A DNA stretch of 52,807 bases, taken from the sequence record PV893055.1. One strand, written 5' to 3'. Positions 33,545 through 39,972 of the stretch are shown in pieces. A program made the translations under genes and the position numbers. Below the pieces are notes generated by a model that did no database searches, was not told the origin of the DNA, and was given only the letters and a program-made list of their open reading frames with translations. This DNA is from Escherichia phage vB_EcoBD_211. The stretch's first letter is position 1. The number at the start of each line of letters is the position of its first letter.

Positions 33545-35677
33545 TTATGCTGCATCGACGGACTGATAAGAGCTGTCCGACGCTGTAGCATTTCTCACAG
33601 TTACTGTGGCACCAATACGACATCCACCGTTACCAACGCCAGTAATAACACCGGTATTACTTACAGTAGCGACAGTATCGTCTGTAGTTGTATACTGAAT
33701 GTTATAGCCTGGGTCTGTCTTAGCGTATTCAGGTCTAACAGTTACAACCAGCTGCTGCGTGTTGCCAACAGTAAGTGCAGGCAGCGAATCAGTAGTAACA
33801 GAAAGCTCAGACACGTAAGGAGATGTTGTACCAGAAGCAGCAACACCGTTCATCACAACGTTAGCAGTAATAGTTGCTGAACCTTCAGACTTAGCAGTCA
33901 TCAAACCATTTGCATCTATACTAATGATAGCGTCATTTGACGATTCATAAGTAACGGTAACGCTCTTAGAGTCCGACGGATAAATCTCAACATCAAGCTG
34001 TTTGGTGTTACCCACAAGCCATTCGGCGTACTGAGGGTATACCTGTACCTTCTCAGAAATTTGTGCCCAAGTAGCTGCGCTAATGTCAGCACCATTGCAA
34101 GTTGCGTAAATCCAGATGTTGCATCCGCCGCTAGCAACACCAGTTACAACGCCAGACGAATCAACAGTTGCAATATCTGGGTTAGCAGACTCATAACGAA
34201 TATTAGTCAGGTCAGCATCAGGCTGGTTAACAGTGTAAGTGAACTGCTGAGTGCCACCAATTGGAATACCACCAAGACCATCTGGTGTAATAACAGCCAC
34301 CTCAGTGCAAGTCGCTACAAATGAAGCCTCAAGTCCACCGTCGTCTGTTGTAACTGTAATAGTCGAAGTTCCAGGAGATTGACCGTATATAACTCCGTTA
34401 GTGTCAACAGTAACAGCGTCAGGATTTGAGCTATTGTAACTGACTTTTTTGTTGGTTGCGTTGTCAGGTGTTATAACAATTTTAGTCTGCACCTGATGGC
34501 CGGCACTTACTTTAGTCGGAGAGTCAGGAGCCCATGCAACATCCGTAACTGCGATGCTGGGGTCTGTAACTTTAACTTCGATTCTATCTGTAAAGTTCCC
34601 GTCATTAGTGATAACAGTAACATCAATTAAGCCTGCAGCGTTAGCGGTTACCAAACCAGCTTCAGTCACAGACGCAACTTCTGACACAGGAGCACTCCAT
34701 ACAACAGATGGGTCAGTAGCATTTTCAGGAGTCACAGTGGCATGTAGCTGAAGAGTGTCACCAACTTCCATGGAAGCTGTATCGCCTTCGTCAATACTTA
34801 CACCGGTAACATTTACAGCAGGCACCCTGACTATAATGTCAAGAGTGTCAGTCTTATCACCGTCATTCGTCTTAACAGTAACAGTGGCATTACCAGCTAC
34901 AATACCAGTAACATTTCCGTCAGTATCCACAGTTGCTACATCAGGCGCACTGCTTTCGTATGTCACTGTTTTGTCAGTGGCATCTTCTGGCGATATACGA
35001 ATACTGGTACCAGCTGTGCTTCCGATATTAACGTTAAGAGGTGACTGAGTAAGAAACTCAACTCCTGTAACGTGTACAATAGGCGGAATAACAGTTACGG
35101 TACAGCTATCGAATATAGAGCTGTCAACACCGTACTGTACGTTTACAGTTGTTTCACCATCTCCAATGGCAGTGACAAGCCCGCTGTCGTTAACAACAGC
35201 AACAGACTCATCGTCTGAAATCCAGTAGAAGTCAGGTTTGTCTGCATTAGCAGGTAAATAGGTGTATGTAAGACGTTGAGTCTTACCCTCTTCAAGCGTC
35301 ACACTTGTGGGAGACACTGTAACAGATTCAACAAGGATAGGTGCCCGAGCAATGTTAAACTTTGCTCGTACTGTATAACCGCCGTCAACAGACGTACCAG
35401 TCACGTATGCAACACCTTCCGCCAGTGGCTTCACAAATCCGAGCTCATCGACAGTGATAATGTCCGGGTCGCTAGATTTCCACACCATACCACGCTTAGT
35501 AGCGTTGGTTGGAATGTAACGCACAACTAGCTGAACAGGGTCATCACCCGCGACGATTGAGTACTCGTAGTTGGAAAGCATTATACCTTCCAGCGGAACA
35601 TTGGGGGTAAAACCTTTACCCCCGTTGCTCTTACTGAACTGGACGTCGACAACCTCATTAAGTGGAAGCGACATCAA
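33545..35677 (-). CDS. virion protein with tandem bacterial Ig-like (Big_2-type) domains
   Basis: Repeated ~80-aa units with a recurring motif of the form V..T..ATVD..G.VT.....G.ATIT; 710 aa. Confidence 0.55.
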   Translation of the reverse strand: MMSLPLNEVVDVQFSKSNGGKGFTPNVPLEGIMLSNYEYSIVAGDDPVQLVVRYIPTNATKRGMVWKSSDPDIITVDELGFVKPLAEGVAYVTGTSVDGGYTVRAKFNIARAPILVESVTVSPTSVTLEEGKTQRLTYTYLPANADKPDFYWISDDESVAVVNDSGLVTAIGDGETTVNVQYGVDSSIFDSCTVTVIPPIVHVTGVEFLTQSPLNVNIGSTAGTSIRISPEDATDKTVTYESSAPDVATVDTDGNVTGIVAGNATVTVKTNDGDKTDTLDIIVRVPAVNVTGVSIDEGDTASMEVGDTLQLHATVTPENATDPSVVWSAPVSEVASVTEAGLVTANAAGLIDVTVITNDGNFTDRIEVKVTDPSIAVTDVAWAPDSPTKVSAGHQVQTKIVITPDNATNKKVSYNSSNPDAVTVDTNGVIYGQSPGTSTITVTTDDGGLEASFVATCTEVAVITPDGLGGIPIGGTQQFTYTVNQPDADLTNIRYESANPDIATVDSSGVVTGVASGGCNIWIYATCNGADISAATWAQISEKVQVYPQYAEWLVGNTKQLDVEIYPSDSKSVTVTYESSNDAIISIDANGLMTAKSEGSATITANVVMNGVAASGTTSPYVSELSVTTDSLPALTVGNTQQLVVTVRPEYAKTDPGYNIQYTTTDDTVATVSNTGVITGVGNGGCRIGATVTVRNATASDSSYQSVDAA

Positions 35678-35685
35678 TCAGCTCC

Positions 35686-39349: not shown

Positions 39350-39972
39350 TATTTAATCCATCCACCGTTAAAGAAACCCATCCAAGTTGCGCCTGAGTCA
39401 AAGGTCAGCAACGTAACAACATCTGTGTAACCCACAAGGAATGACAGAACGGGCTTCCTGTTATTGGCCCATTTTATTCTTGGATCCCAAGAAGTCACCT
39501 TGTTAGAACCAGTGCCTTGCTTAATAGCAATAGTAATCTGACGCGCAACAGTAGACGGGTCAGACACACCACCGATATTAATTACGGTGTTTGGCTGGTT
39601 AAGAGTAAGACTGACAATTGTTTTAGATGCAGCTGGTATAGTCACTGTAGCTGCACTTGCAACGTTGCCGTACTCATAGATTGCTGACGTTGAAGCTACT
39701 GTGGCCTGTTCAGCTGCGGTTTCTGCAGCTTCTTTGGCTGCAATAGCCGCGTCACGAGCAGCACGTGCCTGTATAGCAGCTTCGTTAGCGTTTTCAAAGT
39801 TTGGTATAGCTTCATTGATTGCAGCGTTAATGCCTTCGAGTGTGCGTATGACACCACCTTCCGGGTTAGGGATGTTTGGGTCGTCTGACATACCGAAGTC
39901 ATGAATGAGCTGGACAGCAGTTGTTAGCTTATCCAGCTGCGCTTGCAGTTCCGGGTCTACTCCAGTTGCCAT
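39349..39972 (-). CDS. structural protein with Ala-rich central segment (207 aa)
   Basis: ORF with ATG/stop overlap with the 985-aa gene; AIQARAARDAAIAAKEAAETAAEQ segment. Confidence 0.45.
   Translation of the reverse strand: MATGVDPELQAQLDKLTTAVQLIHDFGMSDDPNIPNPEGGVIRTLEGINAAINEAIPNFENANEAAIQARAARDAAIAAKEAAETAAEQATVASTSAIYEYGNVASAATVTIPAASKTIVSLTLNQPNTVINIGGVSDPSTVARQITIAIKQGTGSNKVTSWDPRIKWANNRKPVLSFLVGYTDVVTLLTFDSGATWMGFFNGGWIK

Follow-up and report, generated by a model that had tools for sequence, protein, structure and literature searches.

A lineage-specific four-gene insertion between the tail terminator and sheath genes of Escherichia phage vB_EcoBD_211 carries a putative adaptor and glycosidase-like cassette and two Ig-repeat proteins

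The block between the tail terminator and sheath genes

We examined positions 33545 to 39972 of a 52,807-nucleotide (nt) stretch of DNA from Escherichia phage vB_EcoBD_211 (sequence record PV893055.1); that whole stretch is called the window below. The region contains a block of four co-directional genes that occupies the 6.4 kb from the tail terminator gene to the tail sheath gene. A first-pass annotation had placed four open reading frames (ORFs) between the neck genes and the sheath gene, and we confirmed all four on the minus strand at the same positions. In particular, the block comprises an ORF for a putative adaptor of 207 amino acids (aa) of the phi92 gp140 family (39349..39972; PHROGs 'tail fiber' 27998), a 985-aa six-hairpin glycosidase-like virion protein of the phi92 gp141 / phrog_2871 family (36392..39349; phrog_2871 'tail protein', E=0, 1425 bits, residues 3-980), a 212-aa protein with two domains of the immunoglobulin (Ig)-like Big_2 type (35686..36324; Pfam Big_2 E 2.8e-36 in 2 stretches; phrog_215 'structural protein with Ig domain') and a 709-aa Big_2 repeat protein (33545..35674; Pfam Big_2 E 2.4e-94 in 8 stretches). 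The last gene would encode 710 aa from a TTG at 35677, while the deposited annotations start it at the next codon, the ATG at 35674. The composition described earlier for these proteins was also correct when recomputed: the 207-aa protein is Ala-rich (15.5% Ala overall, 39% in residues 55-100), the 985-aa protein is rich in Trp and Tyr towards its C-terminus (12-14% in the C-terminal third against 10.1% overall), and the remaining two consist of Big_2 repeats.

The block is bounded upstream by the tail (neck) terminator gene (39972..40499, minus strand, with the start taken from the annotation of phage UPF_BP2 and an alternative at 40529; Pfam PF23961, E 2.2e-16) and downstream by the tail sheath gene of the DUF3383 / E217 gp31 type (32319..33458, minus strand; PF11863, E 4.5e-72; phrog_205). 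On the minus strand the block is preceded by the terminase (45329-46777), portal, scaffold, major capsid protein, Ad1 adaptor, Neck1, head protein and PF23961 terminator genes, and the DUF3383/PF11863 sheath gene is followed by the tube, chaperone, tape measure and baseplate genes. The stop codon of the terminator gene and the ATG of the 207-aa gene share bases (TAATG), as do the stop of the 207-aa gene and the start of the 985-aa gene (ATAATG), so the 985-aa gene appears to be translationally coupled to the 207-aa gene.

The expectation of the first-pass annotation that the sheath gene directly follows the head-tail joining genes holds in this tail lineage: the PF23961 terminator gene directly abuts the sheath gene in 5 out of 6 distant viral contigs with a DUF3383 sheath that we tested, and also in the metagenomic locus L036. 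The same four-gene block was present in a closer locus, L013, whose sheath protein is 75% identical to that of the window. Because the terminator and sheath genes abut in distant phages with the same protein families, the 6.4-kb block is a genuine lineage-specific insertion at the terminator-sheath junction, which is an unusual site.

Within its own lineage the block is neither rare nor new. The region was 97.8% identical at the nt level to Escherichia phage CF2 and approximately 97.5% identical to the Salmonella phages BP63, LPSEYT and UPF_BP2, the last of which is assigned to the genus Rosemountvirus. In total, 43 deposited phage genomes covered at least 80% of it, mostly at 95-99% identity. 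The four genes are thus already annotated in dozens of public genomes of a well-sampled genus. Some of those annotations (swi3 and BEC1-17) label genes of the block as 'diguanylate cyclase', 'diguanylate cyclase/phosphodiesterase (GGDEF & EAL)' or '1,4-alpha-glucan branching enzyme'; we found no Pfam support for these labels in the window proteins, and they are probably annotation artefacts.

Architecture and spread of the block proteins

The 207-aa protein can be divided into a lineage-specific N-terminal region (residues 1-58), a long Ala-rich helix (residues 59-97), which probably forms a trimeric coiled coil, and a C-terminal knob that is conserved and predicted to be a beta-sandwich (residues ~100-207). 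The N-terminal anchor was seen only in Rosemountvirus-like phages, and the knob appears to resemble the N-terminal region of CBA120 TSP4 and gp9-like proteins. An anchor common to this protein and the main tail fibre was considered and rejected, since the two N-termini have no similarity. Neither the 207-aa nor the 985-aa protein matched anything in Pfam, NCBIfam or PDB sequences by phmmer and hmmsearch, except for a weak match of the 985-aa protein to a hairpin of glycoside hydrolase (GH) family GH76.

The AlphaFold2 model of the 985-aa protein, built from a 49-sequence alignment, was predicted with a mean local confidence (pLDDT) of 89.2 and a predicted template modelling score (pTM) of 0.85. 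In this model, helices at residues 13-109, 344-386 and 743-974 make up an (alpha/alpha)6 barrel, into which beta-rich domains are inserted at ~127-326 and ~405-702. Foldseek matched the barrel to GH48 catalytic modules with a probability of 1.0, and the beta-rich regions to the carbohydrate-binding modules (CBMs) CBM11 and CBM22, to CBM-like domains of agarases and to jelly rolls of Cry toxins. The fold also matched diverse six-hairpin hydrolases (GH8, GH76 mannanases, GH88/105, GH15 and GH9), and identity to this superfamily was 7-14%. A profile search against PDB sequences returned only GH76 (E 0.024 over 25 residues, one hairpin), Pfam and NCBIfam placed the protein in no defined GH family, and we saw no similarity to right-handed beta-helix tailspikes. 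An alignment of 58 family members, reaching down to ~29% identity, contained 109 columns that were at least 97% identical. D69, E73, D345, E347, R391, R420, D596, R790, E960 and R963 were invariant in all 58 sequences, and several of these residues are predicted to sit at the N-termini of barrel helices, a pattern that a putative active site would show.

The 985-aa family is widespread. At E<=1e-5 the 985-aa protein has 310 homologues, the majority of which share 45-55% identity with it across 97-100% of its length; they derive from contigs of phage size and from genomes labelled Acinetobacter, Brenneria, Pseudomonas and Gluconobacter. By tblastn the family was present in 532 phage records, which included genomes of ~130-160 kb (42-43% identity over 96%), Vequintavirinae such as FV3 (29%), jumbo phages (PBECO4, Seoulvirus), Erwinia Kolesnikvirus, Vibrio phages (30%) and Aeromonas podoviruses of the Autographiviridae. 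The C-terminal domain of the 207-aa protein (~100 residues) was found in 521 phage records, and the counts for the domain and for the large protein matched genus by genus (Escherichia 239 and 241, Salmonella 99 and 101, Vibrio 61 and 62, Erwinia 33 and 33, respectively).

We then read nine other contexts gene by gene: phi92 (Justusliebigvirus) gp140/gp141 (L005, 8824-12173), FV3 gp43/gp42, Erwinia phage M7 gp041/gp042, the Aeromonas podovirus Atoyac15, an SU10-like podovirus contig, two siphovirus contigs in which the pair follows a gpJ-like tip protein, and two myovirus contigs in which it lies downstream of Baseplate_J. All nine carry a gene of 157-396 aa immediately upstream of the large protein, and the C-terminus of each small protein is homologous to the C-domain of the 207-aa protein (E 1e-16 to 1e-33). 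Among the ten small proteins, including that of the window, the C-domains are homologous while the N-terminal parts are mutually unrelated; the record of Atoyac15 annotates a T7 tail-fibre N-domain in its small protein. A Pseudomonas fluorescens prophage, compared by layout only, has the same arrangement (Baseplate_J, Tail_P2_I, a 173-aa gene and the large protein). Finally, one lineage lacks the small protein, and there the large protein carries a direct fusion to Tail_P2_I, the P2 gpI baseplate domain, after gpW and gpJ; further fusions bring in the fibre-tail adaptor domain of podophages, a non-contractile sheath module of the N4 type or Big_2 repeats at the C-terminus.

The 207-aa and 985-aa genes are thus a portable two-gene cassette that occurs in three morphotypes (myo-, sipho- and podoviruses). 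The L036 locus has the terminator and sheath Pfam families of the window and the same order of Baseplate_J, PF11041 wedge and fibre genes, and there the cassette lies between the J and wedge genes. Identity to the window is only 22-29% for its sheath, J, wedge and spike proteins, yet reaches 51% over 941 residues for its large protein. By these sequence comparisons the cassette is mobile and far more constrained than the tail backbone, which is the opposite of the usual behaviour of receptor-binding proteins. Given the conserved knob, the variable N-terminus, the strict adjacency and the apparent translational coupling, an adaptor that carries an enzyme-like cargo would be the most economical reading of the pair, and on the same grounds we infer a contact between the two proteins.

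We also noticed that the SU10-like podovirus contig (L032) carries two adjacent SU10_MCP-type capsid genes (1304-3795), the second with added Big_2 domains, which looks like a capsid-decoration variant. The cassette of this contig is the one fused to the N4-type non-contractile sheath module.

The other two proteins of the block are built from Ig-like domains. The 212-aa protein has a unique N-terminal region of ~40 aa followed by two Big_2 domains, and it is probably an abundant virion decoration or adhesion protein. The 709-aa protein has a conserved N-terminal peptide of 24 aa followed by about 8 Big_2 domains, and its number of repeats varies between close relatives: the Rosemountvirus SPLA11 lacks one repeat of 87 aa (residues 269-355). 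It is also the fastest-evolving gene of the block, with 47.5% identity to ORF19 of phage S144 compared with 82% for the 985-aa protein, and residues 1-24 are 100% identical between the window and S144. Several metagenomic phages encode fusion proteins of 1687-1694 aa in which a member of the 985-aa family is linked to Big_2 repeats, and these repeats align collinearly with the 709-aa protein down to its final residues. As a Rosetta-stone hint, such fusions suggest that the Ig protein acts together with, or on, the appendage to which the 985-aa protein belongs.

The start of the 709-aa protein, MSLPLNEVVDVQFSKSNGG (codons in 35603-35674), resembles the N-terminus of the cognate sheath protein, MPLNVNQIVNVQLNNTPTG (33402-33458). 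The pairwise similarity of its first 19 residues to the sheath N-terminus had a shuffle p of 0.007, and a hidden Markov model of distant DUF3383 sheath N-termini ranked the peptide only ninth in the six-frame translated window, at E 6. From its sequence, this peptide could be a docking peptide, perhaps one that mimics the 'handshake' arm of the sheath.

Two gaps, the only intergenic ones of the block, contain promoter-like sites on the minus strand. One site (TTTACT-17-TATAAT, a 10/12 match, 36357..36385) lies in the 67-nt gap before the 212-aa gene and the other, with identical hexamers (33491..33519), in the 86-nt gap before the sheath gene; S144 promoters are annotated at the equivalent places. 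The region contained 11 promoter-like sites where 10.5 were expected, a number not above chance, so the two gap sites rest on their position only. The two Ig-protein genes apparently have their own promoter, and the site before the 212-aa gene would fit a high expression of that protein, whose homologue is abundant in virions.

Virion presence, glycan targets and position on the particle

The first-pass annotation had proposed that the block encodes structural proteins, and published proteomics of S144, from the sister genus Loughboroughvirus, agrees for three of the four. Electrospray mass spectrometry in tandem mode (ESI-MS/MS) of S144 virions detected gp16 (21 kDa), gp17 (111 kDa, 25 peptides) and gp18 (22 kDa, 17 peptides, 80% coverage), the homologues of the 207-, 985- and 212-aa proteins, and did not detect gp19, the homologue of the 709-aa protein (PMC7432712). 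The S144 proteins are 77, 82, 71 and 47.5% identical to the 207-, 985-, 212- and 709-aa proteins, respectively. The non-detection of gp19 is weak evidence of absence, because the low content of Lys and Arg in this homologue (3.7%) hampers tryptic detection. The authors of that study also reported an HHpred hint of hydrolase activity for ORF17 (PMC7432712).

Taken together, the best explanation of the block, to which we give a probability of roughly 0.6, is a lineage-specific insertion of accessory virion proteins that engage glycans of the host surface. Its core, a virion-borne adaptor plus glycosidase-like cassette, we regard as highly probable. In the proposed mechanism, the phage-specific N-terminus of the 207-aa protein would anchor the adaptor to the particle, its Ala-rich coiled coil would probably trimerise, and its putatively gp9/gp10-like C-terminal knob would probably hold the 985-aa partner. 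By analogy with other phages, the default reading of the Ig proteins, and the most likely one, is that of exposed decoration or weak carbohydrate-adhesion modules, possibly as part of the same appendage. The appendage would bind, and probably hydrolyse, a chemically invariant exopolysaccharide, so that the particle could reach the lipopolysaccharide (LPS) recognised by the Mu-type tail fibre. The leading candidate substrate would be bacterial (phosphoethanolamine-)cellulose.

The lead to cellulose comes from two carriers of the cassette. A transposon-insertion (TraDIS) screen showed that inactivation of bcs (yhj) lowers susceptibility to Rosemountvirus SPLA2; the paper assigns these genes to cellulose biosynthesis, and its authors concluded that SPLA2 recognises cellulose (PMC10949491). 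The four block proteins of SPLA2 are 96.7-98.4% identical to those of the window (98.4% for the 985-aa protein). The Erwinia Kolesnikvirus M7 was also reported to be cellulose-dependent (PMC13101476); its cassette consists of gp041 (244 aa) and gp042 (1157 aa), the latter with 46-58% identity to the 985-aa protein, and its fibre locus holds no cellulase that Pfam recognises. Besides M7, the one phage of that work that depends on cellulose is Erwinia phage S6, for which cellulose is the first receptor and which sets a precedent for this kind of receptor. An invariant polymer such as beta-1,4-glucan would also account for the 45-50% identity that the family retains among phages and prophages of widely differing Proteobacteria. 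As a side observation, a Gluconobacter kondonii prophage (L040, 6001-10459) has a gene for a GGDEF protein (diguanylate cyclase) two genes downstream of its 985-aa family member. Cyclic di-GMP activates cellulose synthase, and this neighbourhood is a suggestive hint at cellulose, though a single anecdote.

Several points weigh against cellulose, and some against the wider explanation. The Rosemountvirus SPLA11 was scored as LPS-dependent and not cellulose-dependent, and Seoulviruses that carry the family were also LPS-dependent (PMC10949491). The 985-aa protein of SPLA11 is nonetheless 96.9% identical to that of SPLA2. In addition, E. coli K-12 is not known to make cellulose. This strain served for the isolation and plating of family carriers among the Vequintavirinae and phi92-like phages (BASEL study). 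Since SPLA11 and the Seoulviruses depend on LPS and other carriers plate on K-12, carrying the family does not suffice to make a phage cellulose-dependent, and not all carriers need cellulose. As for the fold, the proposal of the first-pass annotation that the block encodes proteins that bind or degrade carbohydrates stands in so far as the 985-aa protein is predicted to have the fold of a carbohydrate-active enzyme, a barrel plus CBM-like beta-sandwiches. The six-hairpin barrel is common to epimerases, terpene cyclases and non-cellulase hydrolases and by itself specifies neither substrate nor catalysis; catalysis, substrate and position on the virion are inferred for the 985-aa family as a whole. 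We therefore hold cellulose as the target of the 985-aa protein only tentatively. A still wider proposal is doubtful; under it the family would be a new, sequence-orphan one of virion-borne six-hairpin beta-glucanases or cellulose binders on an exchangeable adaptor, would underlie the bcs dependence of SPLA2 and M7, would be widespread because its substrate is invariant, and would possibly form 'fibre II' of phi92.

Much the same standing as this wider proposal belongs to the reading in which the 985-aa protein is an active depolymerase for a different glycan, such as the LPS core or O-antigen, the enterobacterial common antigen (ECA), colanic acid, periplasmic glucans or another conserved polymer. 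Its fold matches six-hairpin hydrolases of diverse substrates, S144 and SPLA11 were reported to depend on O-antigen or LPS, the Vequintavirinae carriers depend on ECA and LPS core on K-12 (BASEL study), and the phi92 literature calls gp141 simply a 'glycosidase'. Such a substrate fits less well with the two independent carriers reported to be cellulose-dependent, SPLA2 and M7, and with the 45-50% conservation across phages of Salmonella, Erwinia, Pseudomonas, Acinetobacter and Gluconobacter, since O-antigens and capsules are serotype-specific. ECA and colanic acid are also not known from several of those hosts. We also asked whether the 'sugar deacetylase' lateral fibre of the BASEL phages belongs to the 985-aa family and rejected this, as BLASTP of N4 gp64, gp65 and gp66 against the 985-aa and FV3 proteins returned nothing; the BASEL paper links the conserved Vequintavirinae fibre to N4 gp64.

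The position of the cassette on the particle bears on a further reading. The first-pass annotation had suggested capsid decoration or a neck fibre, and this location finds no support in the other contexts that we found, in all of which the cassette lies in baseplate or tail-fibre loci or is fused to the P2 gpI domain. Because every other context points there, the baseplate periphery or tail tip is favoured, and we lean modestly to attachment on the baseplate side. Against this, the cassette of the window has its own N-terminal anchor and occupies the place of the T4 whisker gene. Micrographs of phage ZCSE2 were described as showing a collar (PMC7232530). A neck or head appendage, in which the 207-aa trimer would be a whisker or collar fibre carrying the 985-aa protein and the Ig proteins would decorate the capsid or neck, by analogy with T4 wac and Hoc, is in our view unlikely.

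No more probable than this appendage at the neck or head is a non-catalytic 985-aa protein, that is, a structural or lectin-like receptor-binding module that only binds glycan or builds a thick side spike. The invariant Asp, Glu, Arg and His residues persist down to ~29% identity, and the conservation of the protein lies far above that of the tail backbone, as one would sooner expect for the active site of an enzyme than for a scaffold.

The Ig repeats, rather than the 985-aa protein, could also be the part relevant to cellulose, and this counts against giving that role to the cassette. Phage Ig-like domains are thought to bind carbohydrates. In this reading the Big_2 proteins would mediate cellulose dependence as multivalent weak adhesins and the 985-aa protein would have an unrelated role. 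Between SPLA2 (L029) and SPLA11 (L030), the large Ig protein, already the block's fastest-evolving gene, is the structural protein that differs most (709 against 622 aa, 83% identity, with one Big_2 repeat gone), the 212-aa protein is 93% identical and the tail fibre differs at only 10 sites. On the other side, SPLA2 and SPLA11 also differ by 10 substitutions that cluster in residues 200-249 of the 985-aa protein and spare the invariant positions, the cellulose-dependent M7 has no annotated Big_2 protein in its fibre locus, and gp19, which corresponds to the 709-aa protein, went undetected in S144 virions. We consider the Big_2 proteins rather improbable as the cause of cellulose dependence. 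The window is SPLA2-like in both the Ig repeat and the 200-249 patch. An attempt to pin cellulose dependence on one gene by comparing SPLA2 with SPLA11 was given up as ambiguous, because the Ig protein and the 200-249 patch both differ.

Finally, that the 985-aa protein is a non-structural enzyme acting outside the particle, the counter-case that the first-pass annotation had itself raised, is very improbable, as published proteomics already contradicts it (S144 gp17 in purified virions) and the gene is embedded in, and apparently translationally coupled to, structural genes and has relatives fused to baseplate and fibre-adaptor domains.

Two Caudo_TAP (Tfa) genes at 22184-23233 directly follow a 446-aa gene for a Mu-gpS-like fibre. 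The two paralogues are 38% identical over ~120 residues, and the second matched Pfam weakly (E 0.0032, below the gathering score). The first-pass annotation had suggested that two Tfa genes would fit a second fibre-like protein in need of its own chaperone, and we rejected the paralogues as chaperones of the 985-aa protein on their gene neighbourhood: both adjoin the Mu-type fibre gene, and no Tfa-type gene was annotated next to the cassette in Atoyac15 or in the contigs L008 and L034. In S144, both chaperones were assigned to the Mu-gpS-like fibre ORF31 and neither was found in virions (PMC7432712). A 123-aa DUF7173 protein, 'gp38' of Rosemountvirus SD286, was reported as a receptor-binding protein (PMC12946066). 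The window has a 123-aa gene at 26387-26758 that is annotated as 'baseplate wedge subunit' in UPF_BP2 and SD350. By its size and by the gene numbering of SD350, this gene may be the counterpart of SD286 gp38, and if so the receptor-binding claim deserves scrutiny.

Significance and comparison with known systems

By sequence, the large protein is a member of the known but uncharacterised phi92 gp141 family. New here are the adaptor-plus-cargo logic, seen in three morphotypes, the insertion and its unusual site, a predicted six-hairpin fold whose acidic residues include invariant ones, the paradox of conservation and a testable cellulose hypothesis that draws on the literature. In biofilms, Salmonella, E. 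coli and Erwinia are shielded by cellulose and further matrix polymers, and the use of Rosemountviruses for biocontrol in food and on farms has been proposed repeatedly. If the cassette binds or cuts such a polymer, it would explain the receptor phenotype of SPLA2 and M7, which is mechanistically unassigned, define a new glycoside-hydrolase-like family in more than 500 sequenced phages, supply a candidate for the unassigned phi92 baseplate density and offer an exchangeable adaptor-plus-enzyme module for phage engineering. If it is only a structural side spike, it would be an ordinary accessory tail module that is already annotated. The 985-aa family is a good biochemical target because it is conserved far above the surrounding tail genes.

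The closest known system is the gp140/gp141 pair of phi92, with its relatives in PVP-SE1, rV5/FV3, phAPEC8-like phages, Seoulvirus and Kolesnikvirus (PHROG 2871). These are direct homologues of the window pair, with ~42-43% identity over 96% of the 985 aa in genomes of 129-161 kb and ~29% in FV3/rV5-like phages. The pair lies inside the baseplate and fibre locus in phi92 and rV5, whereas in the window its place is the terminator-sheath junction, with two Ig-repeat genes downstream of it. Phi92 gp141 has been listed as a predicted glycosidase and as one of several 'tail fibres' of a 'multivalent adsorption apparatus' (PMC5380687, PMC10269720). In the 2026 cryo-electron microscopy (cryo-EM) study of phi92, a short and thick 'fibre II' was left unassigned, gp140 was among four candidates whose predicted structures misfit the density, and the main text makes no mention of gp141 (PMC13450770). 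A gp140 trimer that carries gp141 is a candidate for this density.

The window adaptor family can also be compared with the anchor-and-branch systems of receptor-binding proteins that have T4 gp10/gp9-like domains (CBA120 TSP4, the Klebsiella KP32 type, the SP6/K1-5 adaptors and G7C gp66/gp63.1), with which it has in common an exchanged N-terminal anchor that is specific to the particle. It differs from them in that the adaptor has no enzymatic domain of its own and that its putative cargo is a globular (alpha/alpha)6 protein instead of a trimeric beta-helix tailspike; docking of the 985-aa protein on the adaptor is proposed because of their strict adjacency, co-occurrence and apparent translational coupling.

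Erwinia phage S6, with gp094 (GH48) and gp095 (GH5), likewise has an (alpha/alpha)6 enzyme in its tail locus that is tied to the dependence on host cellulose; cellulase activity was demonstrated only for gp095. Unlike the 985-aa family, gp094 is a true GH48 by sequence (Pfam E 1.5e-198). We tested gp094 as a possible family member and rejected it (no BLASTP similarity, hhalign probability 0.4%); it is an analogue and not a homologue. Compared with the six-hairpin superfamily in general (GH8, GH48, GH76, GH9, GH15, GH88/105 and the AGE epimerases), the predicted barrel of the 985-aa protein differs in being split by two large beta-domain insertions.

Finally, the Ig-repeat proteins of the block can be compared with other phage surface proteins that carry Big_2 domains (T4 Hoc, the C-domain of lambda gpV and T5 pb10). 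The window proteins are likewise tandem Big_2 arrays, with a repeat number that varies among close relatives. They differ in being encoded by two separate genes placed before the sheath gene, the larger of which has an N-terminal peptide of 24 aa that is invariant between genera, and in that the family of the larger protein is fused in other phages to the glycosidase-like protein.

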